Shown here piece after piece: positions 25,864-40,117 of a DNA stretch of 64,000 nucleotides. The stretch covers positions 1,665 through 65,664 of the forward strand of contig JAZUIL010000143.1 in the NCBI GenBank assembly GCA_045642245.1, in the 5' to 3' direction. The notes under the pieces are model-generated. The model was not told where the DNA came from, did not search any database, and saw only the letters and a program-made list of their open reading frames with translations. Origin of the DNA: Bacteroidales bacterium (GTDB lineage Bacteria > Bacteroidota > Bacteroidia > Bacteroidales > UBA3663). Each line of letters begins with the position of its first letter. The stretch's first letter is position 1. The translations under genes were made by a program, and so were the position numbers.

Positions 25864-26658
25864 TTAATACTTATCCACTTTTATGTCAGTCTTAGTTCCC
25901 TTTGGGACAACACTAACTTGATCAGCATCGATCTCAAACTTGGCACAAAGCATATCTGTAAGGCGTACACAAAGGGTAATCTTATGCTTCGGAATTGGAT
26001 TTCCTTCGCTATCGAGAACCTGATGACCAAAACGATCGGTCTGGAACTCAGTCTTGCTAATTATCTCCTTTGTACTTACCAATTCGGCCACATGACCTTT
26101 AAGCTGACCGGCAAGAATCAGTACTGATTGACCTGGCTTAAATTCAGGGGCCTCCATCTGATAAGCATATTCCGATTCCGTCAATGCACGGAATGTTGCC
26201 ATCTCCTGATCAGGAATTGGCTGAGGACGATGTTTACTCTTATCGCTCATGAAACCGACAACGTATTCCTTATATTTACTATAGAATAAAGGATCTCGAT
26301 CATCGAGTGCACAATGAACAAAGATAACACCAGGAATGACAATCTTCTCCTTCCATACCATACGGTCAGATAGTTTCACACGGACTCGTGCCACTGGGAC
26401 ATAACATTCCATGAGGACTTTTTCCGGAACGATCTCCACAAATAAGTCTTCTTTTTTTGCCTTTCCACGACGGACGCCCTTTTTCTCCTGTTCAATACCC
26501 ATCAGGTAATCATGGATCTGGAGTTCATGTTGAGGATGCACATAACAAGCATACCAATGAACAGTGCGATTGAACTTTAGTTTTTCACGCTGGATTTTTA
26601 CATATTCGTCATCACATTCAGCAAGCGAACGCAATGGCGCAGATTCTTTACTTGTCAT
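25864..26658 (-). CDS. NusG/UpxY-like transcription antitermination paralog, enlarged (264 aa)
   Basis: NGN-like motifs HWYACYVHPQHELQIHDYL, VIPGVIFVHC and VVGFMSDKSKHRPQPIPDQEM, plus a KOW-like FKPGQSVLILAGQLKGHVAELVS. It also carries an N-terminal extension and two insertions. Confidence 0.65.
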   Translation of the reverse strand: MTSKESAPLRSLAECDDEYVKIQREKLKFNRTVHWYACYVHPQHELQIHDYLMGIEQEKKGVRRGKAKKEDLFVEIVPEKVLMECYVPVARVRVKLSDRMVWKEKIVIPGVIFVHCALDDRDPLFYSKYKEYVVGFMSDKSKHRPQPIPDQEMATFRALTESEYAYQMEAPEFKPGQSVLILAGQLKGHVAELVSTKEIISKTEFQTDRFGHQVLDSEGNPIPKHKITLCVRLTDMLCAKFEIDADQVSVVPKGTKTDIKVDKY

Positions 26659-26676
26659 TATATCTTTTAATTAATA

Positions 26677-26697
26677 AATAAGGAGGTTCTCCTTATT
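26677..26697 (-). terminator. Hairpin between the GT4 gene and the NusG-like gene
   Basis: AATAAGGAG gtt CTCCTTATT forms a perfect 9-bp stem. On the minus strand it is followed by TTATTAATTAAAAG. Confidence 0.45.
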
Positions 26698-26702
26698 CAA
26701 TT

Positions 26703-27827
26703 CTATATTAACGATAAAAGGTTTTGGGTCATGAAAGACCATGAATACTGTCGTTTCTCATCAAGGATTCCATCTGTAAAATCCGGCCGCTGAGTAACAA
26801 AGTCTTGTATTGCATAAGCAATAGCATCAATTGTTGGGTCTACGGCATAACCGACTTTTCCATCTGGCACTATTTCTGCAAGACCTCCTACTCTAGTCAC
26901 CAGCATCGGTTTCTCAAAATGATAAGCAATTTGAGTTACACCCGATTGAGTGGCAGTCTTATATGGTTGCACGATGAGATCTGCTGCACCAAAATAAAAC
27001 TTCACATCACTGTCTGGCACAAATTCTGATCGCCAGATAAGATGATCATCTATACCAAGATGCTCTGCTAAGTCGTGATATTTTGTTCCATCACTATAAA
27101 ATTCACCAGCAATAATCAAATAATAATCATTATTAGAAGACTGGTTCTGTATGAATTTTGCAAAGGCTTCAAGCAACCAATCAAGGCCTTTATAGTCACG
27201 AATCAAGCCGAAGAACAGCAGATATCGCTTATCCAATGTTATTCCCAATTTATCACAAGCAACATCTCGTGAAACTTTATCTCCAAAATTATCATATAAC
27301 GGATGTGGAGAAAAAACTCTTGGTAACTGCTTATTGAACAGAGAAATCTCCTCAAGTACCGACTTCGAAAGAGAAACTGCCGCATCAATTGATCCGATAA
27401 AATAGCGACTGAACATCTTATCCCCTGGACGATGTTCATGAGGAATCAGATTATGCAGCAATGCTATGACTCTAGTATGATTATTTCCTTTTGCCAGACG
27501 ACAAATAGTACCTAAAGCTGGCGCCATGAATGGTAACCAATAGGCTACAACCAGCAAATCTGGGTTTTCTTTTTTAATGCGACGGCCAGTACTGAGCCAT
27601 GAAATAGGATTACAGCTATTAATACATCGCTCTATCACCAAATCTTTAGGTGCAGGTTCTACGCTATATTGAGTCTTCCCCGGGAACAAGAAACCCGGGT
27701 ACTGAAGAGTAAAAGTATAGAGACGAACTATGTGCCCCTCAGCTTGCAACTGAAGTGCCAATCTCTCGTTAAAAGCCGCAATACCCCCACGATAAGGCCA
27801 AGCAGGTCCGAGTATTGAAATCTTCAT
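26703..27827 (-). CDS. Glycosyltransferase, GT4 (GT-B fold) family
   Basis: 374 aa. N-terminus MKISILGPAWPYRGGIAAFNERLA. The C-terminal half has GT1/GT4-like YLLFFGLIRDYKGLD and VQPYKTATQSGV segments. Confidence 0.7.
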   Translation of the reverse strand: MKISILGPAWPYRGGIAAFNERLALQLQAEGHIVRLYTFTLQYPGFLFPGKTQYSVEPAPKDLVIERCINSCNPISWLSTGRRIKKENPDLLVVAYWLPFMAPALGTICRLAKGNNHTRVIALLHNLIPHEHRPGDKMFSRYFIGSIDAAVSLSKSVLEEISLFNKQLPRVFSPHPLYDNFGDKVSRDVACDKLGITLDKRYLLFFGLIRDYKGLDWLLEAFAKFIQNQSSNNDYYLIIAGEFYSDGTKYHDLAEHLGIDDHLIWRSEFVPDSDVKFYFGAADLIVQPYKTATQSGVTQIAYHFEKPMLVTRVGGLAEIVPDGKVGYAVDPTIDAIAYAIQDFVTQRPDFTDGILDEKRQYSWSFMTQNLLSLI

Positions 27828-27875
27828 AGAAATTTCAATAGTTTTTTGATTGAGTTATCTTAAATTGAATGGATA

Positions 27876-30380
27876 TCAGTCTTTCTTAGGAATAAAATTG
27901 ACAGCAATACATCCAATAATGATCAGATACATAGCAATGACAAAAGCCATAGAAAGCATATTTCCTTTCTCTACCGACTCAGGACGGAACTCAAATCGGA
28001 TATGATGTTGGCCTGCAGGAACATTGAGAGCACGCAACAGATAGTTAACCCGGAAATGATCTGTCGGTTCTCCGTCAATGAGAGCCTTCCATCCATGTGG
28101 ATAATAGATCTCACTGAATACGATAGTACCATCCTCAGTAGACTTTGCATCATATTCGATATACTCTGGAGTATATTTAGTGAGCTCTACAGTTGCTGTG
28201 CTATCCTTCGTATTTACAATCTGGGCAAACTCCGGATATCCATTCAGATTCTGCGCAAATTCTTTATCGAGAACCGCTGTGGTATGAAGATCATATTCCA
28301 TCAAACCATCACATTCCTGATTTGGAGTATCTACAACTACGAGTGTATCAACATACCATGCATTACCCATTGCATTAGGATTTTGTTGTACTCCAATCTC
28401 TCCACTCTGCTGATCTTTGAAGATAAGATACTTTGTATTAAGCATATCGATGACAGGCCAGTGCATTTTACTAAGATGCTCATCGATAAGATCCTGATAA
28501 CGACGGAGCTTTGCTGCACTATATCCTCCAATAGATTTCAAACGATATGAAGTACGAGCATCATTGAAGGTACTAACTGCCAGATTCATTACACGGAAAT
28601 TTGGATCCTTATCATTGTCAAGGATCTGTTTCTCCCACGGCTGCATTTTGAAAGCCTGCTCAAACGAATTGCCCTTTGAGAACATTTCATCGTTCATATA
28701 TCTTTTATCGACTGGCCACATATCACACAGAACGAGTGCTCCCAATACAAGAGCCACTATTCCTGTACCTTTCATCTTATACATCTTCATATATACAACG
28801 AGGAAGACAAGTGCACACAATACAAAGCCCAAAGAACGGAACAAATCAGCATGGAACATTGCTTCACGTTGAAGAACAATACCATCACTCAACCACTCTG
28901 GCAATTGTGAGAACATGGCCTCATCATTAGGGCTCACAAATCCAGAAGTTGTGAAATATGCAACTAGAAGAAGTCCTGTAATAATAGCACCAGCAATACC
29001 CAACTGACGAATCATATTCTTGACATCTGAGCTAGCATTATATAGATCAACTGAACCATTTGACTTTTCAATAGCCTCATTCTTAACTTCACAAAGTCTC
29101 TTTAATGCCAAGAAACCGAGCAATGGCATAGTAACCTCAGCTATTACAAGAATAGAAGATACGGCACGGAACTTATTATACATCGGCACTACGTCGAAGA
29201 ACAATTTGGTCAATGACATCCAGTTATGACCCCATGATAACATTACAGAAAGAATGGTCACACCAAGTATTGCCCATTTATATGGACCTTTAACTATCAA
29301 TAGGCCAAGTACAAAGAGAAGACAGACAATAGAACCCATATAGACAGGGCCTGCAGTAAATGGCTGTGTTCCCCAATAAGTTGGCAAACTCTGGCAAAAC
29401 TGCTCGGCCTGCTTGCGCTGCACTCCTTGTTTTACCATCATGTCAAAGAGTTCACTATCCTTACCAACGTTATAGTTTGATGAACCTCCCATATAATCAG
29501 GAATAAGGAAAGTCCAGCATTCATCAATGCCATAACTCCAAGCAGTAGCATAGTCAAGATCCAGACCTTTTGTCTTATTTTCATTATCTGTCTCCTTAGC
29601 AAGGTCAGAACCACCGCCTCGCATAGTCTCTTCAGCATACTCGAGATTGGTAAATGTAGAGCCTGTACCCGTACCAAGACCGATACCGAATGCAGCTACG
29701 AAAAGCAAAGTACTTATTCCAAAAGCCTTCCATGATTTATGAGTAATTGCATTCCAGAGTTCAGCCAACCAGAAGAAGCCAATGATAAAACACATATAGT
29801 ACGACATCTGCGGATGTGGGAAGAATCCGACAGCAGAACAGATCATCGTGAGGCAAATTCCTGTCTTTTTATGTCCATGGAAAATCAGATAGAATCCAGC
29901 TATGACTGCAGCCATTAACGCTAAGGTAGAAGTCTTACTATGATGATTTGCTCCAATAATTATGAAGAAATATGACGAGAAAGCAATCGCTAATGCACCA
30001 ACGATACTCAGCAACTTATCGACCTTCATACTGCGGAGCAAAGCAAAGAACCCAAGACAATATAGCAGAACAATGGCAATGACATTGCTATGTCCCCACA
30101 AAAGTACTTCTCGGATAGGCTGCATCCAATTCTGTGCAGTAAAACGTCCTCCACCTATCTGGTAATTCGGCATACCTGAAAACATAGAACCAGTCCACCA
30201 AGTACGATTACCTGTCTGCTGATAATACTCTACAGCTTCTTGAACAGCGGCTCGACCTTGAACGCCATCGGATGTAGCAATGACTTTCCCATCAAGAACT
30301 GGCGACATATAGACGCACGATACAACGGCAAAGACAATAATGGCCACAAGGTAAGGCCAGAATTTTTTAATGTAATTCAT
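27876..30380 (-). CDS. YfhO family polytopic membrane protein (putative extracytoplasmic glycosyltransferase)
   Basis: 834 aa with more than 12 TM helices in the N-terminal two thirds, a large C-terminal soluble domain and a final TM helix. The overall architecture and N-terminus (MNYIKKFWPYLVAIIVF...SPVLDGKVI) are typical of Bacteroidetes YfhO proteins. Confidence 0.65.
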   Translation of the reverse strand: MNYIKKFWPYLVAIIVFAVVSCVYMSPVLDGKVIATSDGVQGRAAVQEAVEYYQQTGNRTWWTGSMFSGMPNYQIGGGRFTAQNWMQPIREVLLWGHSNVIAIVLLYCLGFFALLRSMKVDKLLSIVGALAIAFSSYFFIIIGANHHSKTSTLALMAAVIAGFYLIFHGHKKTGICLTMICSAVGFFPHPQMSYYMCFIIGFFWLAELWNAITHKSWKAFGISTLLFVAAFGIGLGTGTGSTFTNLEYAEETMRGGGSDLAKETDNENKTKGLDLDYATAWSYGIDECWTFLIPDYMGGSSNYNVGKDSELFDMMVKQGVQRKQAEQFCQSLPTYWGTQPFTAGPVYMGSIVCLLFVLGLLIVKGPYKWAILGVTILSVMLSWGHNWMSLTKLFFDVVPMYNKFRAVSSILVIAEVTMPLLGFLALKRLCEVKNEAIEKSNGSVDLYNASSDVKNMIRQLGIAGAIITGLLLVAYFTTSGFVSPNDEAMFSQLPEWLSDGIVLQREAMFHADLFRSLGFVLCALVFLVVYMKMYKMKGTGIVALVLGALVLCDMWPVDKRYMNDEMFSKGNSFEQAFKMQPWEKQILDNDKDPNFRVMNLAVSTFNDARTSYRLKSIGGYSAAKLRRYQDLIDEHLSKMHWPVIDMLNTKYLIFKDQQSGEIGVQQNPNAMGNAWYVDTLVVVDTPNQECDGLMEYDLHTTAVLDKEFAQNLNGYPEFAQIVNTKDSTATVELTKYTPEYIEYDAKSTEDGTIVFSEIYYPHGWKALIDGEPTDHFRVNYLLRALNVPAGQHHIRFEFRPESVEKGNMLSMAFVIAMYLIIIGCIAVNFIPKKD

Positions 30381-30419
30381 ATATAATTTATTATTATTTC
30401 GTACGAAAATAGAGCAGTT

Positions 30420-31250
30420 TTACCTGAAGAACTCTAAGATAGCTTGAGCCGGACCTTTCTTAAACCATATATACCACATGACAAGATTATACTGTTCCAA
30501 TGAAAGATGAGAATATTGAGGATCCTTTATCATTGCCCTATAATCTCGTATCAAAGCATTCAGACTCAACATACGTTCTTTATATCGATTCGGATTGTGT
30601 CCTGTCGTTAAAGATTCTTCTCTGACATTATATATATATAAAGGTATATCAACACATGCTATACTCTCGGCCAAAAGCAAAGCTTTAATTAAAAAATTTG
30701 TATCTTCACTATTACGTTGATTTGGGAATAGCAAATGGTTAGAAAGTAAGAAATCCCTACGATAAAGAAAACACACCGAAAAAGTCACAAATCTTCTTAA
30801 GAACTCTTTTTTCAAAGGTGGTTCAAACCTACCAGCTGGTAATACAGGATTGCGATGAACCTCTCCATCTCGTTTTCCTCCTTTATATTTCAGCTGGCAA
30901 TAGGTCAAATCATATGCTACCCCTTTTTTTTCAGAAAGTTGTAGATGCTGAGTCAAGAATTCAGGGGCCCAAACATCATCACTATCAAGAAATGCAACAT
31001 ATTCCCCCTTTGCCTCTGCAATTCCGATATTTCGAGCTACTCCTGGTCCTGAATTTTTCGGAGTCTCAAGGAATCGGAATCTGGCATCCTCGTCAACCAT
31101 ATCTTTTGCTATGGCCATACTATTGTCCTGTCCATGATCATCAACCAGTAGCACCTCAAAGTCCTGCATCGTCTGAAGCAAAAGACTTTGAAGCGTATCC
31201 GCAATGTATAAAGCGGCATTATATACCGGTATGATCACACTGACTTTCAT
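30420..31250 (-). CDS. Glycosyltransferase family 2
   Basis: 276 aa with MKVSVIIPVYNAALYI, LLVDDHGQDNS and the DXD motif AFLDSDDVW. Confidence 0.85.
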   Translation of the reverse strand: MKVSVIIPVYNAALYIADTLQSLLLQTMQDFEVLLVDDHGQDNSMAIAKDMVDEDARFRFLETPKNSGPGVARNIGIAEAKGEYVAFLDSDDVWAPEFLTQHLQLSEKKGVAYDLTYCQLKYKGGKRDGEVHRNPVLPAGRFEPPLKKEFLRRFVTFSVCFLYRRDFLLSNHLLFPNQRNSEDTNFLIKALLLAESIACVDIPLYIYNVREESLTTGHNPNRYKERMLSLNALIRDYRAMIKDPQYSHLSLEQYNLVMWYIWFKKGPAQAILEFFR

Positions 31251-32053
31251 TAGAACTTCCTTTTCAATTTATTAGGCCAATTTGCTATACGCTGAGGCAC
31301 TTTAACACACCATCTTAGCATTTCATCAAACATAAATCCCATGCGTTGAAATGGTCCAAAAAATGGACGTCTCAATCCCCGAATCGCATATGCACTATCT
31401 ATGATTGAATTGATTCTTTGCCTATGATCTACATCCTTACGATCATTACCCTCAAAGAGTCGAGTAAGGAATGAGACCTTATAAAGACGTGCGAACCAGG
31501 TATGAAGGCATATCTGGACCTCCCCTACCTCATTAAAGAGCTTAGTGGTAATAGTATCTTCATGTCGCTGGTTCTCGAGATAGAGAGTACGGTCCGGAAA
31601 GGTCTTTACTATCCAATGAAAGAAATTATAATAGGGTTCTATTCCTTTATAATTATCCTTCTTCAATTCTGGAATCAATCGATAAGCGTTCCATGACTTA
31701 CGGATTTCATGGAGATTAAAGATATTGAAGAATGGATTGGTTACCGTAGGATCTCCTTTACGAGGAACTCCTTGTCCGGCATCACTGCAACCTGCATTTA
31801 CCCACTTCTCATCTTCAACTTTTTTAGCCAAAGCAAGGACTGCATCCAGATCTGTAATAAAACAGTCTTCATCGACATTTATGGCAATATCACAATCCTC
31901 ATCTTCGAGCATCGTAAAGAAATAGCCATCAGCCGTCTGATCTGTCAATCGGACACAAGGATAACCAGCCTGCTCATATAAACCTTTACTGAGTAGGTAT
32001 AGTTCCTTATTAAAAGAACGACAATAGAACTTTATGCGAGATGTTCGAGACAT
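31250..32053 (-). CDS. Hypothetical protein, possible DXD-type transferase
   Basis: 267 aa with no family I recognise. It has an acidic DXD-like stretch (AINVDEDCFITD) and a basic amphipathic C-terminus. It overlaps both neighbours (1 nt and 22 nt). Confidence 0.45.
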   Translation of the reverse strand: MSRTSRIKFYCRSFNKELYLLSKGLYEQAGYPCVRLTDQTADGYFFTMLEDEDCDIAINVDEDCFITDLDAVLALAKKVEDEKWVNAGCSDAGQGVPRKGDPTVTNPFFNIFNLHEIRKSWNAYRLIPELKKDNYKGIEPYYNFFHWIVKTFPDRTLYLENQRHEDTITTKLFNEVGEVQICLHTWFARLYKVSFLTRLFEGNDRKDVDHRQRINSIIDSAYAIRGLRRPFFGPFQRMGFMFDEMLRWCVKVPQRIANWPNKLKRKF

Positions 32054-33102
32054 TGACTAATTCTTTGCTTAAATGTATGTTGTGATGTAATCAGTTCAAG
32101 TGCAGCTTTTGCATGAGAACTTTTATCATGCTGCAATGCTTCATCAATACATGCGAATAGAGAATCAAATTTATGCTCCTCACCCTCTGGCATATTAACA
32201 TGATATAGGCCAATCTCTCCATTGGGAAATAGTCTTTCAATATATGGGTTAGAATCGCACACCTGATAGCTACCCGTCGCAGCAATCTCATACACCTTTG
32301 GATTAGCCCCATCTTTCTGCTGCTCATGATGCATATTCAGTACAATGCGGGCTTTATTATAATCCTCATTCAATTGCTTCCCCGTAGCATTTCGGTTCAT
32401 ATAAACATCCTTCCTTTCGCGAGTCAACCACTTCCAAGGATTCTTGTACCATGGTTTATATTCTCCCCATACCCTAATCTTCAGAGATGGATAATGAGCG
32501 ACAACCGCTTGAATAATATCTCTACGTCGATGACTATGAAAAATATCTCCGGCAAAAACAATATCATATTCCTTATTTGAATTCATCGGATAATAAATCT
32601 CTGTATCAACTGCCTGAGGGAGGAAAAATGCATCGACTCCAAATCTTTCTTTAATCAATGGGATGTCCGTCTGTTCATAACAGAATACCGCATCAACGGC
32701 AGGAATACATTCTTCACATAATGGAATATGCGTCATACTGTCAAAGAACCACAAAGCTACCTTTGCTGGTTTAAGCACCGGATCTGGATCATCTTCTAAC
32801 TTACCTCTCCAATGTAAAACAGTATCAGATAAAAGCATATCTCCATTCATCACAAATACTACATCCGGTTCGAATTCCTCAAATGCCAGTTCCGCTTCTA
32901 AATGAAACAAAGCACGAGATTCTTTCTTCATCTGGAGTTTATCGCTTGCCAGTTTATATCGGATTTTGTTATCAAAAGTATATGGATGAACAGGATTATC
33001 ATAGGCTAAAACACGAGTTTCGTATCCAAGAGCACAAAAAGCCCTTTCAACACTTTGGTTGAAATAATGAAACTTCGGACCTATAATTAATGCTTTCATC
33101 AT
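32032..33102 (-). CDS. CgeB-like / DUF3880-type glycosyltransferase family protein
   Basis: 356 aa. N-terminus MMKALIIGPKFHYFNQS. The C-terminal segment IVLNMHHEQQKDGANPKVYEIAATGSYQVCD resembles the CgeB/Glyco_trans_1_2 family. Confidence 0.5.
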   Translation of the reverse strand: MMKALIIGPKFHYFNQSVERAFCALGYETRVLAYDNPVHPYTFDNKIRYKLASDKLQMKKESRALFHLEAELAFEEFEPDVVFVMNGDMLLSDTVLHWRGKLEDDPDPVLKPAKVALWFFDSMTHIPLCEECIPAVDAVFCYEQTDIPLIKERFGVDAFFLPQAVDTEIYYPMNSNKEYDIVFAGDIFHSHRRRDIIQAVVAHYPSLKIRVWGEYKPWYKNPWKWLTRERKDVYMNRNATGKQLNEDYNKARIVLNMHHEQQKDGANPKVYEIAATGSYQVCDSNPYIERLFPNGEIGLYHVNMPEGEEHKFDSLFACIDEALQHDKSSHAKAALELITSQHTFKQRISQCLEHLA

Positions 33103-33158: not shown

Positions 33159-33980
33159 TCAAAAACACTTCACATCATCCAGATTCACCGCAGCATACTG
33201 AACATGCTGGCGACGCTGTTTCTCGTTAGGCAACTTCATATAATCGCCGTATATATCTGACAATCGCTTATGGATATCCTTCGGAGCAAAAACCTTGAGT
33301 CCCTCAAATTCTACTTCCTGTAGCGGGAAAAGGTAGTCCGTATCATATGGTTTTCCATTGCCATAAGTCTCCGGGGTCGGACTCAGTCGTTTTTTGTTTT
33401 TAGGAATACACTTCCAGAGTCCCTTGAATATCACATATTGAATAGGATACCAGAAATAGCAAATGATATTATGGAAATTCAGCTGCGGATTATATTTGAA
33501 GAAATTATAGGCAAACGAAACTCTTCGCATAATATAACGCCAAGGTTTGTACGCCATCTTAGGTTGCTCTACAAACTCAAAGATATCAATGAAGATTCCT
33601 TTATGGCAAGGCTTACGAAAATCCTGGAAGTTGAAGATAAACAACGAATGATTATCTCGGACGCGAAGATTTCCTCGACCCACTTCAGAAGTTGGATCAC
33701 TTTGACGTGTCTGCAAGAAATAATCCTGGCACAGTTCCGTCTTAGCAATCTCAATAAATTTACGATAATCCTCGCTCGGCATATCTATATCCAGATCATC
33801 GTCCCATGGAATGAACCTCCCCTGATGACGCTTATAGCCAAGGAGCGTTCCATAGTCAATCCAATAACGGAGTTGATGCTTACGACAGATACGGTCTACT
33901 TCCGAAAGGAGCTCTACAGCACGTAACTGCACCTTACGGAGGTTAGAACCATCCTGTCCATATTGATATAAATCTTCCAT
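33159..33980 (-). CDS. LicD family phospho-alcohol (CDP-alcohol dependent) transferase
   Basis: 273 aa with the LicD core YWIDYGTLLGYKRHQGRFIPWDDDLDIDM. Confidence 0.8.
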   Translation of the reverse strand: MEDLYQYGQDGSNLRKVQLRAVELLSEVDRICRKHQLRYWIDYGTLLGYKRHQGRFIPWDDDLDIDMPSEDYRKFIEIAKTELCQDYFLQTRQSDPTSEVGRGNLRVRDNHSLFIFNFQDFRKPCHKGIFIDIFEFVEQPKMAYKPWRYIMRRVSFAYNFFKYNPQLNFHNIICYFWYPIQYVIFKGLWKCIPKNKKRLSPTPETYGNGKPYDTDYLFPLQEVEFEGLKVFAPKDIHKRLSDIYGDYMKLPNEKQRRQHVQYAAVNLDDVKCF

Positions 33981-34987
33981 TACTTCTTTAATTTACTCAT
34001 TCCCCACGAAAATACTTCATTGATATTTGGTGTACTTACATTATATTCTCTGGCCAAATCTACAATGTATTTCAGACCGAATGGGAAATCCTCTGTAAAA
34101 TATCGGTTTTCAAAATCCGGGATCCAACGGCCATCCGATTGTTGCTTCATCGGAGCAACAATATTCTGAAAAGCTTGAATACTACTTAATTTAGCTGCCA
34201 AAGATTCTGCATCATGACTCTCATAATATTCAAGTAGACTTGGAATTGAATCCGGATTCATCGGCAAATGCCTTAACAGATCTTTGAACTCATTATCCAT
34301 TCGGATTAACCATTCTGCAGCATCGACCGTCCATTCTTTATAGAATAAAAAACAACGATCATACGATTCTCCTTTCCAATCATGCCAAAGGCTATATAAT
34401 CTTCCGGTATGAAGGATCGGATTACTATTTGTCAAAGATACTTCAAGATAATTTGACAATAGTTTCACAGGCGTAGCAAAAAGAGTTTCTATCTGTTTGC
34501 AGAAATCCTCTTTATCTTGTATCCCCTCTGTTGCTATAGCCAATAATGGTTTGTACCCAAGCAAATTTGCAGTACTTCCATATTCAGAAATACGAGCAAT
34601 GAACGGTGCACGCTGGAATCCAAATAGCTTTGTACCATGAGACAATACTCTATGTGCGACGAAAAAGAAACCTGTGTTACATACAACTGATCCAACTATA
34701 GTTTCAGAATTCAAATATGGTTTGATCTGTAATAACGTCTTTTCGATCAAGAAGCCAGGCAAACAGAGTAAAACAATATCAGAAAGTGGTATGATCATGG
34801 AAGGATCAGAGGTGATTGTTTGTAATCTTCCCTCAAAGACTTTTCCATGTACATCAGTCACGTATATCGTCGAATTCCACTTCTCTAATCGTTGTGTAAG
34901 CAAAGATACTTCCACACCTTCAATCTGAGAAAGGACTCCTATACATACATGACCTAATGAACCACCTCCACATATTGTTATTCTCAT
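33980..34987 (-). CDS. NAD(P)-dependent oxidoreductase, octopine/nopaline dehydrogenase / glycerol-3-P dehydrogenase-like
   Basis: 335 aa with a Rossmann N-terminus MRITICGGGSLGHVCIGVL and the helical-domain motif NSNPILHTGRLY. Confidence 0.6.
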   Translation of the reverse strand: MRITICGGGSLGHVCIGVLSQIEGVEVSLLTQRLEKWNSTIYVTDVHGKVFEGRLQTITSDPSMIIPLSDIVLLCLPGFLIEKTLLQIKPYLNSETIVGSVVCNTGFFFVAHRVLSHGTKLFGFQRAPFIARISEYGSTANLLGYKPLLAIATEGIQDKEDFCKQIETLFATPVKLLSNYLEVSLTNSNPILHTGRLYSLWHDWKGESYDRCFLFYKEWTVDAAEWLIRMDNEFKDLLRHLPMNPDSIPSLLEYYESHDAESLAAKLSSIQAFQNIVAPMKQQSDGRWIPDFENRYFTEDFPFGLKYIVDLAREYNVSTPNINEVFSWGMSKLKK

Positions 34988-34989
34988 GA

Positions 34990-36810
34990 CTACATTAATG
35001 CTTTAAAACCTGCAATAAGTCTTGCGTTATCCTCATGGCTTCTTACAGCAATACGCATATATTGTTTCTGTCCATCAAAACCCTTTTTATCCGAACAATC
35101 GCGAGTCAGGATATTAAAACGCTTCAACATTGTAAGGACAAGCATATTTGCATTCATCGGAGGCAAGATCTCACACAAGAAATAATTGGCTTGAGATGGC
35201 ATTACACGAAGGAATGATATCTCATGCAACTGACGTTCAAAGTCTTCTCTCTCTGCAATGAACTTATCACAAGCACGCTTGTAATCCTTCTCATATTTAT
35301 TAAATATCTGCATGAAGAACTCTGCAAATGAGTTGATGTTCCAGATACTGACCATCTTCTTCATCTTGACAATGATCTCCTTATCTGCAGTGCATAGTAT
35401 ACCTAAACGTATGCCAGGAACGCCATAGCTCTTCGAAATACTCTTCATTACAACGAGATGTGGATACTGCTCAAGAATCTCATTGTGAAGTAATGTATTA
35501 TTCTCATAGCCAACGCTAAAATCGACAAAACTTTCATCAATAATCAAGCGGATTCCTCTTTCTTCACTCCATGCTGCCAGTTTGAGCACATCAGCAAATG
35601 GAATAAAATTGCCAGAAGGATTGTCCGGATTAATAATCAGAAGATTGTCTGCTGAATGCAGCCCAAAATATTCAATCAAATCATCCGCAGAATACCGGAA
35701 ATCTTCATTCTGTGGGACAAAAGTCACAAGGTTTTCCGTATCACGACGGTTTGGATACTCCTCAAAAGTTGGACGAACAATACCTAAAGTACCAGGGAGA
35801 AGTTCCATCAAGGCTTTGATCAACTCTGCTGCGCCATTACCTGGGATAATATATTCTTCCTTGATCCCCCAGCACTTACTTGCAAGCAATGTATTAACCT
35901 TCATACCTGAAGGATACTCCGCTATCAAGGTACGGAAATTTGCCTCTATCTCATCAATGATTCGCGACTCATTAAAATAGGGATTAACCAGATAACAATA
36001 GTCAAGCATCTGAGGAAAACGCCAGAAACCACCATAGCGTCCATAATATTTACGAAGAATATCTTTTTCCTCTGCAAAAAGAGCCTCAGCAATGTCCAAA
36101 TCCTGCTTATCATCAATCTCATACCACTTCAGATTGCCAATTGGCAATGCTTTCAGATCATGGCTATTAAGGAAAGTAATAATACGCAAGACATTCTCGT
36201 AGTATTCATTATTACCGACAGACTTTGAATAGGCTTCAAGGAATGGCACATACTTCGAACTAGAAAATTCTTTTGAGAACTTATAGATGTTGACTGTCTT
36301 ATAATACTCATCAACATTATGATAATTGAATGCCGCCTTAGGGATAAAGTTCACAATATTCTTTTCGCTATCGATGCAAACCATCGTTCCATCCATCCAT
36401 GTCTCATATTTTGCAACAAGCGCAAGATTTGGGAATGGATTATCGACAAGAAGATCTAACATACCATCTTCAAAAATCAGATCCGACTCAAGAAGTAAGG
36501 TATCTTCCTCCTGCATCTTATCCTTAGCTAATGCTAAAGAATAAATATTATTTGTCTTATCATAGATTGGATTAACGATGTATTCTATCTTCAGGCCATT
36601 ATATTCATTCCCTAGATAGTCCATAAGTTTCTGACCTTCGTAACCCACAACAATTACAACACGGGTCAGAGATAAACGAGACAGCTGACTTAAGGCTCTG
36701 TCAATGAGTTTTGTTCCGTTGACAGGCACCATGCATTTGGTATTTGACTCGGTGTATTCACCAAGTCTTTTACCCATACCTGCTGCCAATATGATTGCTT
36801 GCATATTCAA
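34990..36810 (-). CDS. Fusion protein: N-terminal nucleotidyltransferase (LicC/sugar-phosphate NTP-transferase-like) plus C-terminal class I/II PLP-fold enzyme (HisC/CobD-like)
   Basis: 606 aa. N-terminus MNMQAIILAAGMGKRLG...VPVNG. The C-terminal half carries the PLP-lysine motif VMKSISKSYGVPGIRLGIL. Confidence 0.75.
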   Translation of the reverse strand: MNMQAIILAAGMGKRLGEYTESNTKCMVPVNGTKLIDRALSQLSRLSLTRVVIVVGYEGQKLMDYLGNEYNGLKIEYIVNPIYDKTNNIYSLALAKDKMQEEDTLLLESDLIFEDGMLDLLVDNPFPNLALVAKYETWMDGTMVCIDSEKNIVNFIPKAAFNYHNVDEYYKTVNIYKFSKEFSSSKYVPFLEAYSKSVGNNEYYENVLRIITFLNSHDLKALPIGNLKWYEIDDKQDLDIAEALFAEEKDILRKYYGRYGGFWRFPQMLDYCYLVNPYFNESRIIDEIEANFRTLIAEYPSGMKVNTLLASKCWGIKEEYIIPGNGAAELIKALMELLPGTLGIVRPTFEEYPNRRDTENLVTFVPQNEDFRYSADDLIEYFGLHSADNLLIINPDNPSGNFIPFADVLKLAAWSEERGIRLIIDESFVDFSVGYENNTLLHNEILEQYPHLVVMKSISKSYGVPGIRLGILCTADKEIIVKMKKMVSIWNINSFAEFFMQIFNKYEKDYKRACDKFIAEREDFERQLHEISFLRVMPSQANYFLCEILPPMNANMLVLTMLKRFNILTRDCSDKKGFDGQKQYMRIAVRSHEDNARLIAGFKALM

Positions 36811-36835: not shown

Positions 36836-37792
36836 TCAGACACAAGCGAAATAGTCGATAATACCACAGAAATGATTCTGCTTATCAAGAACGATGAGTG
36901 CATGTATACTATTACTCAACATCAGATCTGCAGCTTCACTGATCTTAGCATTCTGACTGATCTTCTTCGGATTACGACTCATTATATCCTCAACATGCAG
37001 ATGGAAGAGAGCTTCTCTATACTTCTGCATAGCTCTTCTCACATCACCATCAGTAATAATACCGACAACTTGCAAATCTTCATCAATAGCCACCACGAGA
37101 CCTTTTTTGCCTTCACTTATACGGATAATCACATCACTCAGCATATCTTTTGGAGATACCGTCCAAGTGTTTAGTCCATAAGTATCCATAAGATCAGAAA
37201 CACGGCACAATAATTTCTTTCCAAGACTTCCTCCTGGATGGAATCGAGCAAAATCAGAATCCTTGAATTGACGTACTTTCACCAAAGCACACGCTAAAGC
37301 ATCTCCAATAGCCATAGCTGCTGTAGTAGAAGATGTTGGTGCAAGATTCAACGGATCAGCCTCATGGCTTACAGCCGTATTCAGATGACAAGTACTATAT
37401 CTCCCTAATAATGAATCCGGATTACCAGAAATGCCAATGATAGGAATATCTCGTTCGATAATCAATGGAATAAAACGAAGTAACTCATCTGTATTACCAC
37501 TATACGATATAGCCATCACCACATCTCCAGTAGCTATCATTCCTAGATCTCCATGATATGCATCCAATGGATTGAGATAGAAAGACGGAGTACCAGTACT
37601 GGCCAAGGTCGCAGCGATCTTGCTTCCAACATGACCAGACTTACCGACTCCCGTCACAATAACCTTGCCTTTACAATCCTTTATGAGATTGACAGCCTGT
37701 TCAAACTCCTCTCCGATACGAGGAATAAGATCAAGTATTGCCTGAGCCTCATCTCTAAGACATTGAACACCTGTATTTATGATTTCGCTCAT
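36836..37792 (-). CDS. kdsD: Arabinose-5-phosphate isomerase (KpsF/GutQ/KdsD family; SIS + 2 CBS)
   Basis: 318 aa with the SIS motif VTGVGKSGHVGSKIAATLASTGTPS, then GGSLG and a tandem CBS pair. Confidence 0.85.
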   Translation of the reverse strand: MSEIINTGVQCLRDEAQAILDLIPRIGEEFEQAVNLIKDCKGKVIVTGVGKSGHVGSKIAATLASTGTPSFYLNPLDAYHGDLGMIATGDVVMAISYSGNTDELLRFIPLIIERDIPIIGISGNPDSLLGRYSTCHLNTAVSHEADPLNLAPTSSTTAAMAIGDALACALVKVRQFKDSDFARFHPGGSLGKKLLCRVSDLMDTYGLNTWTVSPKDMLSDVIIRISEGKKGLVVAIDEDLQVVGIITDGDVRRAMQKYREALFHLHVEDIMSRNPKKISQNAKISEAADLMLSNSIHALIVLDKQNHFCGIIDYFACV

Positions 37793-37798
37793 AAAAAC

Positions 37799-38596
37799 TT
37801 ATTTAAGTAATGATTTAATGACCTTTTCTAATTCATTCAGATACAACATGTTCGGACCATCGCTCAATGCCTTTTCAGGATCTGGATGTGTCTCAAAGAA
37901 ATAACCAGTTGCTCCAAAAGCCTTAGCAGCCAGTGCCATGTTGGGGACAAATTCACGATTGCCTCCTGATTTCCCTCCAGCTGCACCAGGTCGCTGCACG
38001 GAATGAGTACAATCCATGATGACAACTGGTGTAAACTGCTTCATATCTGGAAGATTTCTGAAGTCTACAACAAAATTGTTATAACCGAAAGAATTACCTC
38101 GTTCAGTCAACCAGACAGGAAACTCACTCTTTACTTCAGAAGTAGGGTTTATGCACTCATTCTGCCAAGTATCTCTAACCTTCTGCACAGGATACTGCAT
38201 ATCCAATCCACTCAGGAACTGCGCCTTTTTTATATTAACAGTCTTTCCAGTCTTTGCTGCAGCCACCAGCAAATCTGTCTGACGACAAAGGAACGCAGGA
38301 ATCTGCAAAACATCCACTACTTCAGCAACCGAAGCAGCCTGATAACTCTCATGAATATCGGTGAGCAGTTTCAAGCCATACTTCGTCTTGATATCAGCAA
38401 GCATCTGCAAACCCTTTTCCATCCCAGGGCCACGGTATGAAGAGATACTAGTTCGATTAGCCTTGTCAAAAGATGCTTTAAATATAATATCGACTCCCAG
38501 TGTCTTATTGATCTGAACTAGCTCCTTAGCTACTTCATCGAGACATTCCTGAGATTCAATTACACATGGACCCGCAATGAAAATTGGTGTATACAT
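37799..38596 (-). CDS. kdsA: 3-deoxy-8-phosphooctulonate (Kdo-8-P) synthase
   Basis: 265 aa with FKASFDKANRTS, LQIPAFLCRQTDL and DCTHSVQ motifs. Confidence 0.9.
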   Translation of the reverse strand: MYTPIFIAGPCVIESQECLDEVAKELVQINKTLGVDIIFKASFDKANRTSISSYRGPGMEKGLQMLADIKTKYGLKLLTDIHESYQAASVAEVVDVLQIPAFLCRQTDLLVAAAKTGKTVNIKKAQFLSGLDMQYPVQKVRDTWQNECINPTSEVKSEFPVWLTERGNSFGYNNFVVDFRNLPDMKQFTPVVIMDCTHSVQRPGAAGGKSGGNREFVPNMALAAKAFGATGYFFETHPDPEKALSDGPNMLYLNELEKVIKSLLK

Positions 38597-38620
38597 ATAC
38601 TGAAATAGTTTTTTTACTTA

Positions 38621-40117
38621 TCAATCTTTTACTACCTTCCGAAGAACATACTTGTTGATGAACCAAGTAATCTGTGGAGAGATACGCATCATATATATCA
38701 ACACTCCAGCAATAGACATAACGACAATAGTACGAAGTGCAATGTCTAACCAAGGAGAATATCCTGCAAATGATGGGATGAGGAAATTCAACGCAAAAAG
38801 AGCGCAGAGAATTGCAACGATACGAAGATGTGCCCATGTAAATGGATTGGTCTTAATCTTTACCTGCACAATATACTGCTGATATGCATAGCTGAAAAGT
38901 ACTGTAATAAGAGAAGCTAAAGCAGCTCCGCTTAATCCAAAGATTGGGATAAAATACAGATTTGTGGCGATGCTGATTCCCATTAGGATAAAGGTAAAGA
39001 ACAATGTCCAATAATAATACTTACTGAAAGAAATCAGCGTATTACCGAAATTCAATGTTCCATATACTACCTTCGATAATCCTAAGAACAAAACAGCCCA
39101 TCGTCCTTCAGCGAACTTATCTCCATTTGGAATAATCGCAAAGATATTATCAAGATTGATCCAAACAATGAGTAACAATACGGTAGAAGCCATCATCTGA
39201 TGAACAGAAACCTGCTTATATAGATCTTGTGCTTTTTCTACATTACCTTCCTTCATTGCCTCAGCGGCCAATGGGGTACTGATAGGAGTAATATTACGTG
39301 ATGGCATATTGACAATCTCTGCCATATAGACGACAATCGCATAAATACCAGCACTATAGAGACCCTTAACACCGGACAACATAAAAATATCCATCTGCTG
39401 AATCACATTTCCAGAGATTGTAGAGAGCATCAAGAAACCCGCATATTTAAGGACTTTAGATCTCAAATCAGGAGTAATGAAACTCCAATCATGTTTGAAA
39501 GACCGGCTTCCGATATGTAAAGAATAAACCGTAGCAATAAGCATACAGATTCCATAACATATAATAAAACCAACAATGAGACCTGTGACTCCAATATATC
39601 CGAAACCATAAGCCAGATAAATGGCAAGCATCATCACACGCATGCCAACTTCTCTGACTGCTTTTGGCAATGCAATACGCATATTGATATTGGCGTAATT
39701 CTCTGACCATACCCAGAACGCCAATACGATAAGCATTGGGATTACATAGAAGAAATGCTCATTGAAAAGCGGACTCTTCTCCCCAAAATAACTTTCAATA
39801 GGGCCACGTAAAGCAATATATAAACCTGTAATCAGGATAATTCCTACAACGGGGAACAGAAGATAATAATACAAGAATCCATTGTTTCCGTTCTCCTTGT
39901 TTTTGAAATATGGGAAGAAGCGCATTCCAGTACTTCCAGATCCTAGCAAAGCAAGAGTTGAAAGCAGAAATGCTACCTCATAAACGACCTTTGAGAGACC
40001 AATTACCTCTGGGTCAAGATATTTTGCAACGATATAGAACTGAACAAAAATGCCCAGTACCACACCGATATAATTAACTACGGTTCCTTTAAGAGACTGT
40101 CGTATTACTACGCCCAT
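38621..40117 (-). CDS. Polysaccharide/oligosaccharide flippase (MOP superfamily, Wzx-like)
   Basis: 498 aa with ~14 predicted TM helices. The N-terminus MGVVIRQSLKGTVVNYIGVVLG is typical of polysaccharide biosynthesis (PST) proteins. Confidence 0.7.
   Translation of the reverse strand: MGVVIRQSLKGTVVNYIGVVLGIFVQFYIVAKYLDPEVIGLSKVVYEVAFLLSTLALLGSGSTGMRFFPYFKNKENGNNGFLYYYLLFPVVGIILITGLYIALRGPIESYFGEKSPLFNEHFFYVIPMLIVLAFWVWSENYANINMRIALPKAVREVGMRVMMLAIYLAYGFGYIGVTGLIVGFIICYGICMLIATVYSLHIGSRSFKHDWSFITPDLRSKVLKYAGFLMLSTISGNVIQQMDIFMLSGVKGLYSAGIYAIVVYMAEIVNMPSRNITPISTPLAAEAMKEGNVEKAQDLYKQVSVHQMMASTVLLLIVWINLDNIFAIIPNGDKFAEGRWAVLFLGLSKVVYGTLNFGNTLISFSKYYYWTLFFTFILMGISIATNLYFIPIFGLSGAALASLITVLFSYAYQQYIVQVKIKTNPFTWAHLRIVAILCALFALNFLIPSFAGYSPWLDIALRTIVVMSIAGVLIYMMRISPQITWFINKYVLRKVVKD

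Follow-up and report, generated by a model that had tools for sequence, protein, structure and literature searches.

Organization of the locus

Within the window, by which we mean the whole 64,000-nucleotide stretch of Bacteroidales DNA that was analysed, three minus-strand genes form a cassette flanked on both sides by co-directional genes, as listed here.

25864..33102, minus strand: downstream run of six genes, co-directional with the cassette (Pfam)
33159..33980, minus strand: LicD-family phosphotransferase, 273 aa (Pfam LicD)
33980..34987, minus strand: octopine dehydrogenase (OcDH)-family NAD(P)H enzyme, 335 aa (Pfam Octopine_DH)
34990..36810, minus strand: fusion of a nucleotidyltransferase (NT) and a PLP enzyme (ORF; Pfam NTP_transf_3 and Aminotran_1_2)
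34990..36027, minus strand: CobD/Ser-P-decarboxylase-like PLP domain, fusion residues ~262-606 (PDB matches, TIGR01140)
36076..36810, minus strand: LicC/PntC-type cytidylyltransferase domain, fusion residues ~1-245 (PDB matches)
36836..37792, minus strand: KdsD (Pfam/NCBIfam)
37799..38596, minus strand: KdsA (Pfam/NCBIfam)
38621..40117, minus strand: Wzx-like flippase (Pfam/NCBIfam)
36836..40117, minus strand: whole upstream run of Wzx-like flippase, KdsA, and KdsD, in one strand run with the cassette

The three open reading frames described in the first-pass annotation are all present, with the OcDH-like gene starting 2 nt past the stop of the fusion gene and itself overlapping the LicD gene by 1 nt. 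Read from its TTG codon, the fusion comprises 606 residues; translation probably begins instead at the ATG at 36804, giving 604 residues, because all fusion homologues begin with MQAIILAAG and a database protein (P0001) of 100% identity is 604 residues long. The LicD protein matches Pfam LicD over its full length (E 2e-34) and carries the acidic motif WDDDLDID. Downstream, the six genes encode a Glyco_trans_1_2/DUF3880 protein, a 267-aa protein without family, a GT2, an 834-aa YfhO-like membrane protein, a GT4, and a NusG-like protein, and several of the related loci likewise have YfhO-like, GT2, and GT4 genes close to the cassette. The adjacency to kdsA/kdsD, to which attention had earlier been drawn, looks incidental, because just one of the 80 related loci (L007) has such Wzx-like/KdsA/KdsD neighbours upstream.

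The NT-PLP fusion

In the fusion, Pfam places NTP_transf_3/NTP_transferase over residues 5-124 (E 1e-12) and Aminotran_1_2 over residues 316-599 (E 1e-28). The LicC-type assignment first given to the initial ~240 residues is borne out, as LicC (PDB ID: 1JYK; E 5e-12) is among the best PDB matches of this half, together with Tde1415 PntC (PDB ID: 6PD1), with which the alignment spans residues 3-241, end to end. Moreover, the LLLESDLI motif of the NT half is identical in Tde-PntC, and includes the equivalent of Glu104, which in that enzyme contacts the primary amine of 2-aminoethylphosphonate (AEP).

Likewise, the C-terminal half has the HisC/CobD-type PLP fold and intact Schiff-base lysine originally ascribed to it, as seen from the Aminotran_1_2 match and from the alignment of SISKSYGVPGIRLG in this half with SLSKDFGIAGVRLG in PDB entry 6OUX, and its PLP motifs (Lys, Asp, and Asn) do not vary across phyla. 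Closest in the PDB is 6OUX, named 'threonine phosphate decarboxylase-like enzyme' (E 1.7e-41), followed by 3FTB, deposited as HisC (E 2.5e-30); S. enterica CobD (PDB ID: 1LC5) gives E 4e-25, and the HisC entry 8BJ1 E 1.3e-19. The score is 173.8 bits for CobD (TIGR01140) versus 137 bits for hisC, both under cut-off, the CobD equivalog cut-off being 290.55 bits. The molecule name of 6OUX is the annotation of SMUL_1544, which we take this entry to be, and SMUL_1544 is the Ser-P decarboxylase of norcobamide synthesis. We regard the PLP half as a putative Ser-P decarboxylase, a choice over an aminotransferase that is not readable from sequence, because two PLP enzymes of one capsule locus, Cj1436 (Ser-P decarboxylation) and Cj1437 (DHAP transamination), do either. 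Cj1436, which turns Ser-P into ethanolamine phosphate for capsule decoration, is with 6OUX and CobD among the closest relatives of the PLP half, and has the Lys/Asp/Asn motifs in common with it. However, these enzymes are stand-alone, feeding cobamide assembly or an amide ligase, whereas the PLP half in the window is joined to a cytidylyltransferase.

That this fusion is undescribed, as was once supposed, does not hold. With more than 8000 homologues scored, it proved to be widespread rather than peculiar to this locus, being the usual arrangement in Bacteroidales, Fibrobacter, Clostridia, and PglB-type loci, and FrbH and Tde1415 are two characterised NT-PLP fusions. FrbH, from FR-900098 biosynthesis in Streptomyces rubellomurinus, is likened here by description: it too combines an N-terminal PF12804 cytidylyltransferase with a C-terminal class I/II-fold PLP decarboxylase, and its substrate, 2-amino-4-phosphonobutyrate, is the C-P isostere of O-phosphoserine. 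Its decarboxylase role was reportedly described by Johannes and colleagues in 2010, with the CMP-bound amine said to be then tailored by partner enzymes; cytidylylation comes first in the reaction order. Unlike the window cassette, which has an OcDH-like partner, a probable LicD transfer of the head group to glycan, and no PEP mutase gene in the window, FrbH serves a secondary-metabolite phosphonate pathway in which the CMP handle is finally removed. The cytidylyltransferase role of FrbH is stated in PMC6697681. A full-length homologue with 32% identity lies in a B. cereus plasmid cluster, where the adjacent genes encode an additional DXR and an N-acetyltransferase of the AAC(3) type. Tde1415/PntC (PDB IDs: 6PD1 and 6PD2) likewise pairs an N-terminal LicC-like cytidylyltransferase with a C-terminal fold-type-I PLP enzyme, and its pathway, which tailors with CMP-2-aminoethylphosphonate, occurs in loci with LicD-like transferases decorating surface glycans. 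In contrast to the CobD/HisC-type PLP half of the window, Tde1415 has an AEP transaminase of class V at its C-terminus, and its substrate derives from Ppm and Ppd, both absent from the window.

The OcDH-like enzyme

To call the 335-aa protein a Rossmann reductase of the glycerol-3-phosphate dehydrogenase type undersells it. In fact, it is a full-length homologue of Pecten maximus OcDH (PDB ID: 3C7A; E 2e-33), with Pfam matches to Octopine_DH (E 2e-32) and ApbA, and its H193, R295, and D300 align to OcDH His212, Arg324, and Asp329, such that both the proton relay of His and Asp and the NADH sensor, Arg324, are retained. Across 91 homologues, ten of 11 pocket residues are invariant and the other, Q125, is found in 90. 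Here, the two OcDH residues that hold the guanidinium of arginine are replaced, Glu142 by a Gln with an invariant Arg after it, and Trp278 by Ser/Thr/Pro; two extra Arg at the substrate pocket of OcDH are invariant, as is Lys266, whose place in the fold is unmapped. The cation pocket of OcDH has here turned polar and basic, which fits an anionic, phosphate-bearing amine as substrate. Opine dehydrogenases otherwise serve anaerobic redox balance or opine catabolism, whereas this gene lies in a putative CDP-headgroup pathway, and in the literature we found no earlier description of the chemistry of this middle enzyme in the cassette.

Distribution and variants of the cassette

The three-gene cassette is real and common: its gene order is not a chance arrangement, because it is repeated in 64 of the 80 related loci and in other phyla. 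Across phyla, the OcDH-like gene is strictly paired with the fusion, often with translational coupling; of the 80 loci, 57 include a LicD homologue in the flanks retrieved, and about six have the OcDH-like gene by itself. Neighbouring steps also occur fused in genomes (NT+PLP, CTP_transf_like+OcDH, and OcDH+LicD), which suggests the step order NT/PLP, then OcDH, then LicD, and in two loci (L090 and L091) a CDP-alcohol phosphatidyltransferase stands in for LicD, which suggests a CDP-alcohol as the product.

That the OcDH-like enzyme acts on an amine rather than a ketone is suggested by its other genomic settings. In three loci (L051, L055, and L059), this enzyme (52-74% identical) is encoded directly 3' of Ppm-Ppd-PntC-AEPT, a set that makes AEP, the isostere of phosphoethanolamine, though a TagF-like gene follows there and the association could be with it instead. 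In two others (L042 and L053), the OcDH-like gene lies alongside a choline/ethanolamine kinase-NT fusion, and in Fusobacterium vincentii the NT-PLP fusion is paired with a formyltransferase-like gene, of an amine-modifying family, in place of the OcDH-like gene.

Proposed pathway and alternatives

We infer every substrate and product of the pathway proposed here, to which we give a rough probability of 0.45. With kinase, Ppm, Ppd, and AEPT genes all missing from the window, the fusion is the only head-group source in it, and would convert O-phospho-L-serine and CTP to CDP-ethanolamine through cytidylyl transfer by the N-terminal LicC/PntC-type domain and PLP-dependent decarboxylation by the C-terminal CobD/Ser-P-decarboxylase-like domain, in either order. 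With NAD(P)H, the OcDH-like enzyme would then join the primary amine of CDP-ethanolamine to a 2-oxo acid, most simply pyruvate, giving CDP-N-(1-carboxyethyl)ethanolamine; LicD would place the phospho-headgroup on a hydroxyl of a sugar in the glycan made by the neighbouring glycosyltransferases, and Wzx would flip the decorated lipid-linked glycan. This logic, in which LicC-type activation precedes LicD-type transfer of a small phospho-headgroup onto a glycan, is also that of the Lic1 phosphocholine pathway (LicA-LicD) and of pneumococcal WchX/Gtp1-3, but genes for a LicA-type kinase and a LicB-type transporter are absent from the window, and the phosphorylated precursor would come from the PLP domain.

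Alternatively, the cassette might be the Bacteroidales counterpart of pneumococcal WchX-Gtp1-Gtp2-Gtp3, adding glycerol-2-phosphate via CDP-2-glycerol: the OcDH-like enzyme would reduce dihydroxyacetone to glycerol, the PLP half in some way yield glycerol-2-phosphate, the NT half make CDP-2-glycerol, and LicD attach glycerol-2-phosphate to the glycan. Work by Wang and colleagues in 2010 reportedly found plain reduction of dihydroxyacetone as the Gtp1 activity, with glycerol-2-phosphate as the product there, which counts against N-alkylation by the OcDH-like enzyme only if Gtp1 is in this family. Glycerol-2-phosphate in pneumococcal capsules tracks four genes, wchX and gtp1-3 (PMC1391919), whose order would match LicD, OcDH, NT, and PLP, with gtp2-gtp3 fused here. 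Of these, gtp1 is annotated 'glycerol-2-phosphate dehydrogenase', in keeping with the many OcDH-like homologues that also match NAD_Gly3P_dh_N, and gtp2 'nucleotidyl transferase', but gtp3 is annotated 'phosphotransferase', a label more fitting for a LicA-type kinase than for a PLP fold (PMC3493582). Moreover, polysaccharide loci of Firmicutes commonly contain the cassette, and the P. gingivalis O-glycan has glycerol phosphate on HexNAc. Nevertheless, we consider such a counterpart unlikely, given that a PLP enzyme with all its cofactor residues has no evident role in glycerol phosphorylation, that variants tied to AEP or to a formyltransferase would be pointless with a glycerol head group, and that 6OUX, the nearest solved PLP relative, was deposited as a threonine-phosphate-decarboxylase-like enzyme.

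Distinctly unlikely, in our estimate, is that the OcDH-like enzyme acts as a plain carbonyl reductase on a CMP- or CDP-linked aldehyde or ketone supplied by PLP-dependent (decarboxylative) transamination, much as C. jejuni HS:5 makes CDP-6-glucitol by reducing CDP-6-fructose, the transferred group then resembling 2-hydroxyethyl phosphate or glycerate/glycerol phosphate. While the Rossmann fold, weak ApbA and G3P-DH N-terminal matches, the OcDH-like step between cytidylyltransferase and LicD in the fusion chain, the alditol phosphates that are the phospho-substituents so far reported on Bacteroidales O-glycans, and a conceivable reduction of phosphonoacetaldehyde in AEP loci all agree with it, such a reductase would call for an unusual PLP reaction within the trio, make the AEP transaminase superfluous in AEP loci, and lack a source of its carbonyl where the kinase fusion is the partner. 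The retained OcDH-type His-Asp relay also differs from the Lys-based catalytic residues of ketopantoate and G3P reductases. Very unlikely, finally, is an unmodified amino-alcohol phosphate as the head group, either phosphoethanolamine or, should the PLP half be a DHAP transaminase like Cj1437, serinol phosphate, with the OcDH-like enzyme an accessory that, for example, clears the keto acid of transamination. Both Cj1437-type and Cj1436-type reactions are found among capsule PLP enzymes, and the keto acid released by AEPT-type transaminases, pyruvate, could explain why the OcDH-like gene co-occurs with both PLP types; however, the strict, often translationally coupled pairing and the OcDH+LicD and NT+OcDH fusions argue for an on-pathway step, and the invariant extra Arg pair and Lys266 for a phosphorylated substrate.

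Returning to CDP-ethanolamine that is reductively N-(1-carboxyalkyl)ated before LicD transfer to a surface glycan, an O-polysaccharide of Proteus mirabilis is reported to carry N-[(R)-1-carboxyethyl]ethanolamine phosphate as a substituent (PMC9630907). As a counter-point, reports on O-glycans of Bacteroidales have so far described glycerol phosphate and a hexitol phosphate as phospho-substituents, neither being opine-type. Of the first-pass annotation, its central idea stands, namely that the three genes make a CDP-linked small phospho-headgroup that LicD transfers to a glycan, whereas the novelty of the fusion and the kds link do not. Kept across phyla, with a CDP-alcohol phosphatidyltransferase swap and with neighbouring steps fused elsewhere, the cassette is well supported as a CDP-headgroup and LicD decoration module, in which we propose the OcDH-like enzyme as a putative N-(1-carboxyalkyl)ating tailoring enzyme.

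Gene structure of the cassette

Three closely packed ORFs had been claimed for positions 33159-36810 in the first-pass annotation, and these we found present with the spacing described there. They comprise a nucleotidyltransferase (NT) joined to a CobD/HisC-type PLP protein (the NT-PLP fusion), an octopine-dehydrogenase-family protein (OcDH-like), and a LicD protein. The features of this trio and of the adjoining operon are as follows.

34990..36810, minus strand: ORF of the NT-PLP fusion
33980..34987, minus strand: ORF of the OcDH-like protein, 335 aa, beginning 2 nt past the fusion stop
33159..33980, minus strand: ORF of the LicD protein, 273 aa, with a 1-nt overlap with the OcDH-like gene
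31250..32053, minus strand: 267-aa protein with no Pfam or NCBIfam match
30420..31250, same strand run as the YfhO-like gene: GT2
27876..30380, minus strand: polytopic YfhO/PgfM-type protein, 834 aa, its C-terminus matching YfhO/PgfM-type membrane glycosyltransferases
26703..27827, same strand run as the YfhO-like gene: GT4
25864..26658, minus strand: NusG-family protein, 264 aa, at the downstream end of the operon, not its head

In Pfam, with matches above the curated cut-offs, residues 5-124 of the fusion correspond to NTP_transf_3/NTP_transferase and residues 316-599 to Aminotran_1_2, and the 335-aa protein corresponds to Octopine_DH (PF02317) with a weak ApbA match. The LicD protein (PF04991) scores 120.1 bits against a cut-off of 22.6, spans profile positions 1-227 of 227, and carries an acidic DxD-type motif (WDDDLDID). 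The TTG start of the fusion is probably placed two codons too early, since all homologues start MQAIILAAG and a length of 604 aa is recorded for the database protein with 100% identity.

Further along the operon, the gene for the 267-aa protein overlaps its neighbors at both ends, at its start the preceding Glyco_trans_1_2/DUF3880 gene and at its stop the start of the GT2 gene. The 264-aa NusG-family protein is reminiscent of the UpxY anti-terminators of Bacteroides polysaccharide loci. YfhO-like genes recur close to the cassette in several related loci fetched from other genomes (e.g., L007, L015, L021, L028, L056, and L065), and in L007 a NusG-like gene also adjoins the YfhO-like and GT4 genes. 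As a review of Bacteroidota O-glycosylation describes the O-oligosaccharyltransferase and ligase as still undiscovered, the 834-aa YfhO-like protein might be a candidate periplasmic glycan transferase. With regard to a possible reading of the operon as the Bacteroidota O-glycosylation (LFG) locus, metG is not nearby and the operon flanks are housekeeping genes.

The nucleotidyltransferase half of the fusion

The NT half matches NTP_transf_3 (PF12804; 48.5 bits, cut-off 27) and NTP_transferase (PF00483; 43.8 bits, cut-off 21.2), and the glycine-rich (L)AAGxGxRL signature is found as AAGMGKRLG at fusion residues 8-16. Among solved structures, it matches LicC (PDB ID: 1JYK) and aligns over its whole length with the PntC domain of Tde1415 (PDB ID: 6PD1). 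The LLLESDLI motif has the same letters in both the window protein and Tde1415, and its Glu is known in Tde-PntC as a contact to the primary amine of 2-aminoethylphosphonate (AEP). Here, fusion Glu108 aligns to Tde-PntC Glu104 (LicC counterpart Asp105), so that the acidic residue of the amine contact is present, while the second amine contact of Tde-PntC, Glu196, is ambiguously aligned, lying opposite Tyr204 with Glu205 adjacent. The NT half is a predicted cytidylyltransferase of the LicC/PntC type, with a putative CTP-dependent formation of a CMP/CDP conjugate.

The PLP half of the fusion

The best PDB match of the PLP half is a 'threonine phosphate decarboxylase-like enzyme' (PDB ID: 6OUX; E 1.7e-41), next to which come 3FTB (deposited as histidinol-phosphate aminotransferase, HisC; E 2.5e-30), Salmonella CobD (E 4e-25), and other HisC entries (E 1e-19 or weaker). 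The Schiff-base lysine motif noticed on first reading aligns with the lysine-containing motif SLSKDFGIAGVRLG of this best solved relative. The molecule name of 6OUX is an exact match to the annotation of SMUL_1544, the L-serine-O-phosphate decarboxylase of norcobamide synthesis; on the strength of this name match, we take 6OUX to be that Ser-P decarboxylase. With 173.8 bits against an equivalog cut-off of 290.55, TIGR01140 (CobD) falls short and yet is the top NCBIfam match, ahead of hisC (137 bits, also under its equivalog cut-off), and by its score the PLP half is a CobD relative, not an orthologue.

When fusions of Bacteroidales, Fibrobacter, Clostridia, and PglB-type loci were aligned together with 6OUX and two stand-alone PLP versions, the PLP hallmarks NPDNPSGN, DESF, KSISKSYGVPG.RLG, and the C-terminal R.A.R proved invariant. 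NPDNPSGN, DESF, and KSISKSYG hold in 16 sequences covering five phyla and align to 6OUX. This conservation predicts an active PLP enzyme acting on a phosphorylated amino compound. A Cj1437-like transaminase is the alternative for this half, as the PLP enzymes of the C. jejuni capsule locus are each either decarboxylase or transaminase; the ranking of solved relatives on the whole mostly favors decarboxylases over transaminases, and going by homology the PLP half is probably a decarboxylase.

Comparison with characterized fusions

The fusion had been thought undescribed. In fact, it is not rare, as more than 8000 database proteins match it (E < 1e-10), and two NT-PLP fusions, Tde1415 and FrbH, are characterized. 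Tde1415 joins PntC to a class V AEP transaminase. FrbH, from FR-900098 biosynthesis, cytidylylates L-2-amino-4-phosphonobutyrate (PMC6697681). With this C-P isostere of O-phosphoserine as its substrate, FrbH sets a direct precedent for the conversion of Ser-P and CTP to CDP-ethanolamine. FrbH and the window fusion are alike in combining an N-terminal PF12804 domain and a C-terminal class I/II PLP domain in a single polypeptide, a likeness of architecture; in contrast, the PEP-mutase phosphonate context of FrbH is missing, with Ppm, Ppd, and AEPT absent from the 64-kb window. In the work of Johannes et al. of 2010, the C-terminal PLP domain of FrbH reportedly decarboxylates the CMP-bound amino acid, and partner enzymes are said to tailor the CMP-bound amine. 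By this analogy, the window fusion would work like FrbH, yet we do not class it as FrbH.

The OcDH-like enzyme

The 335-aa protein had been described as a Rossmann reductase. The Rossmann GxGxxG motif is indeed there (GGGSLGH), but the enzyme proves to be a full-length homologue of Pecten octopine dehydrogenase (PDB ID: 3C7A; E 2e-33) with the catalytic residues of that family. More specifically, H193, R295, and D300 align to His212, Arg324, and Asp329 of 3C7A, of which His212 and Asp329 form a His-Asp proton relay and Arg324 is the 'NADH sensor' (PMC2924402), and this conservation of relay and sensor indicates that the catalytic apparatus of opine dehydrogenases is retained. The head-group pocket is a different matter. 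In octopine dehydrogenase, the side chains of Glu142 and Trp278 hold the guanidinium of arginine (PMC2924402), whereas the OcDH-like protein has Gln125, followed by an invariant Arg126, in place of Glu142, and Ser at the Trp278 position (Ser/Thr/Pro among homologues), which argues that its amine substrate is not arginine-like. Across 91 OcDH-like homologues, R126, R132, H193, R196, Y216, W219, Y255, K266, R295, and D300 are invariant, and Q125 is found in 90. The pocket, which in octopine dehydrogenase binds a cationic head group, is polar and basic here, as would be expected if the substrate ends in phosphate.

Distribution and conservation

A scan of species-representative genomes, which reached only relatives of at least 50% identity, yielded 80 loci, all from Bacteroidales or Fibrobacter. 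As for whether relatives conserve the fusion, NT-PLP lies directly upstream of OcDH-like in 64 of the 80, another 4 have at least the PLP part, and a LicD homologue is located inside the fetched flanks of 57. The best 120 of the more than 8000 fusion matches have the same architecture throughout (80-100% identity). The OcDH-like family comprises 1277 clusters in a representative search, and among these representatives OcDH-like and LicD are fused in both orders, and one OcDH-like protein is fused to a CTP_transf_like cytidylyltransferase.

The fusion is also conserved in Clostridia, PglB-type loci, and Fusobacterium. In Wzx/Wzy loci of Hungatella hathewayi and Lachnospiraceae, the same order recurs (LicD - NT-PLP - OcDH-like), and in one lineage a CDP-alcohol phosphatidyltransferase takes the place of LicD. 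Two further homologue searches gave matches in Clostridia and an environmental-looking group and none in Streptococcus, and the E. coli genomes searched gave no DNA match. The adjacency to kdsA/kdsD, remarked on earlier as not known to be described in a diderm, is shared by only one of the 80 related loci (L007), and Clostridia carry the cassette too. Such conservation across Bacteroidales/Fibrobacter, Clostridia, and PglB-type loci indicates that the cassette is old, mobile, and not diderm-specific.

Three metagenome contigs (L088, L089, and L092), from an uncultured, probably Campylobacterota-like lineage, have NT-PLP, OcDH-like, and two LicD genes amid PglB/STT3, PglC, and a DegT aminotransferase. 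This placement within PglB/STT3 and PglC loci implies an N-linked protein glycan bearing the same head group.

More distant relatives lie on plasmids. Plasmid matches to OcDH-like belong to distant subfamilies; one cluster, in Proteus, is of the siderophore type and includes a PALP enzyme, and another is from Burkholderia. In Proteus mirabilis H63 (L082) and the rhizobial plasmids H3, H9, and H15-H29, a different OcDH-family branch adjoins a PALP/cysteine-synthase-like enzyme. In these siderophore-type clusters, which also encode IucA/IucC and a TonB receptor, this branch may substitute for SbnB in an SbnA-type diaminopropionate route. Full-length fusion homologues of about 32% identity occur in plasmid clusters of B. 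cereus and Erwinia, the latter adjoining a CDP-alcohol phosphatidyltransferase. In the B. cereus plasmid (L094; NZ_CP053657.2), the 32%-identical fusion sits between an AAC(3)-type N-acetyltransferase and ACP, aaRS-like, and ATP-grasp genes, and an additional DXR copy adjoins the cluster, which points to a product of the fosmidomycin/FR-900098 kind and a gene for self-resistance. In a cluster on the Rhizobium sp. 007 plasmid (L093; NZ_CP064190.1), a distant OcDH-family protein comes immediately after a CobD/HisC-like PLP enzyme, in company with a methyltransferase, an MFS transporter, a CDP-alcohol phosphatidyltransferase, class I/II PLP enzymes, a PEP mutase, and a protein of the phosphocholine-cytidylyltransferase family; with the same PLP-then-OcDH pairing, the cluster resembles a pathway to a small-molecule phosphonate. 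Three plasmid-labelled PLSDB records from Proteus mirabilis and Fusobacterium vincentii (NZ_OL790811.1, NZ_OL790812.1, and NZ_CP084075.1; 4.08, 4.09, and 2.1 Mb) are evidently whole chromosomes almost without annotation.

Variant contexts and the source of the head group

In three related loci (L051, L055, and L059), OcDH-like comes immediately after the genes of the pathway to AEP (PEP mutase, phosphonopyruvate decarboxylase, a PntC-type NT, and a class V AEP transaminase), and AEP is an isostere of phosphoethanolamine. In two others (L018 and L020), the PLP domain is not fused, and a member of the unrelated CTP_transf_like family takes the cytidylyltransferase role; in a further two (L042 and L053), OcDH-like is followed by an NT gene close to an NT-choline/ethanolamine-kinase fusion. 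OcDH-like proteins from all contexts are 52-74% identical, being as close to the trio-context proteins as those are to each other. A LicD locus of Fusobacterium vincentii SB055 carries a fusion of 49% identity and no OcDH-like gene, and a formyltransferase-like partner gene overlaps the fusion start. Since opine dehydrogenases and formyltransferases are both amine-modifying, these partners, together with the AEP and kinase contexts, argue that the fusion product carries a free primary amine on which OcDH-like acts.

The 64-kb window holds no gene for Ppm, Ppd, AEPT, choline/ethanolamine kinase, a TagF-like protein, CDP-alcohol transferase, or CTP_transf_like protein, and a tblastn search of the window with a Bacteroidales NT-choline-kinase fusion, looking for a LicA-type choline kinase, matched the NT part only. 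With those genes missing, the PLP half is left as the sole source of the head group. Phosphocholine was ruled out as head group, with no kinase in the window and choline having no reactive amine, as was AEP in the case of this window, from which Ppm and Ppd are absent.

Proposed pathway and alternatives

The generic reading of the first-pass annotation, a CDP-headgroup and LicD decoration module, is sound; all substrate assignments within it are ours by inference. In the pathway we propose, the fusion would convert Ser-P and CTP to CDP-ethanolamine, perhaps with cytidylylation coming first, by analogy to FrbH. OcDH-like would then join the amine to a 2-oxo acid by reductive condensation, pyruvate being the simplest choice, and so yield CDP-N-(1-carboxyethyl)ethanolamine, LicD would move the phospho-headgroup onto the glycan made by the adjacent glycosyltransferases, and Wzx would flip the decorated glycan. 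The natural fusions of NT with PLP, NT with OcDH, and OcDH with LicD support this order of steps. For OcDH-like as a CDP-ethanolamine (and CMP-2-aminoethylphosphonate) N-(1-carboxyalkyl) synthase, we would tentatively give a probability of roughly 0.4. The proposed product is chemically precedented, as a Proteus mirabilis O-polysaccharide has been reported to bear N-[(R)-1-carboxyethyl]ethanolamine phosphate (PMC9630907). The Proteus O-antigen paper and its supplements have no gene-level link to this group, and our literature search found no paper linking opine dehydrogenase with phosphoethanolamine, AEP, or cytidylyltransferase.

The main rival, unlikely in our estimate, is the CDP-2-glycerol route that the earlier annotation had drawn from the Gtp proteins. 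Its gene order would fit, and the four genes wchX and gtp1-3 track glycerol-2-phosphate in pneumococcal capsules (PMC1391919). However, while gtp2 is annotated as a nucleotidyl transferase, gtp3 is annotated as 'phosphotransferase' and gtp1 as 'glycerol-2-phosphate dehydrogenase' (PMC3493582), labels more in keeping with a kinase than with a PLP fold, and a glycerol head group would leave the AEP-linked and formyltransferase-linked variants and the intact PLP site unexplained. Alditol-type readings are kept alive by the phospho-substituents known from Bacteroidales O-glycans, namely glycerol phosphate in P. gingivalis and hexitol phosphate in P. intermedia. Less probable again is that OcDH-like simply reduces a CDP-linked carbonyl, and we regard as the most doubtful that phosphoethanolamine or serinol phosphate stays unmodified, the dehydrogenase being accessory.

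Biological significance

The novelty lies in how consistently glycan loci pair an FrbH-like bifunctional enzyme with one of the opine-dehydrogenase family, and in the amine-tailoring chemistry that this implies, for which we favor N-(1-carboxyalkyl)ation. If our reading is true, OcDH-like would be the first opine dehydrogenase known on a nucleotide-activated substrate, a large branch of that family that lacks annotation would gain a function, and CDP-ethanolamine would be made de novo from phosphoserine, without ethanolamine kinase. The three enzymes are soluble, the substrates cheap, and carriers cultured, among them Alloprevotella rava DSM 22548 (L047), Xylanibacter rarus (L064), and Hungatella hathewayi (L083), all of which makes the cassette tractable. 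Thousands of genomes from Bacteroidales, Fibrobacter, and Clostridia carry it, and Fusobacterium has a related form of the fusion without OcDH-like. The location of the cassette in loci for polysaccharides and for protein glycosylation makes it a probable determinant of a surface epitope common among gut, rumen, and oral bacteria. Very common in anaerobes of these habitats, it would, on our reading of OcDH-like, be the missing route to opine-type glycan phospho-substituents, e.g., N-(1-carboxyethyl)ethanolamine phosphate, and would explain the origin of the carboxyalkylated phosphoethanolamine groups known from O-antigen chemistry.
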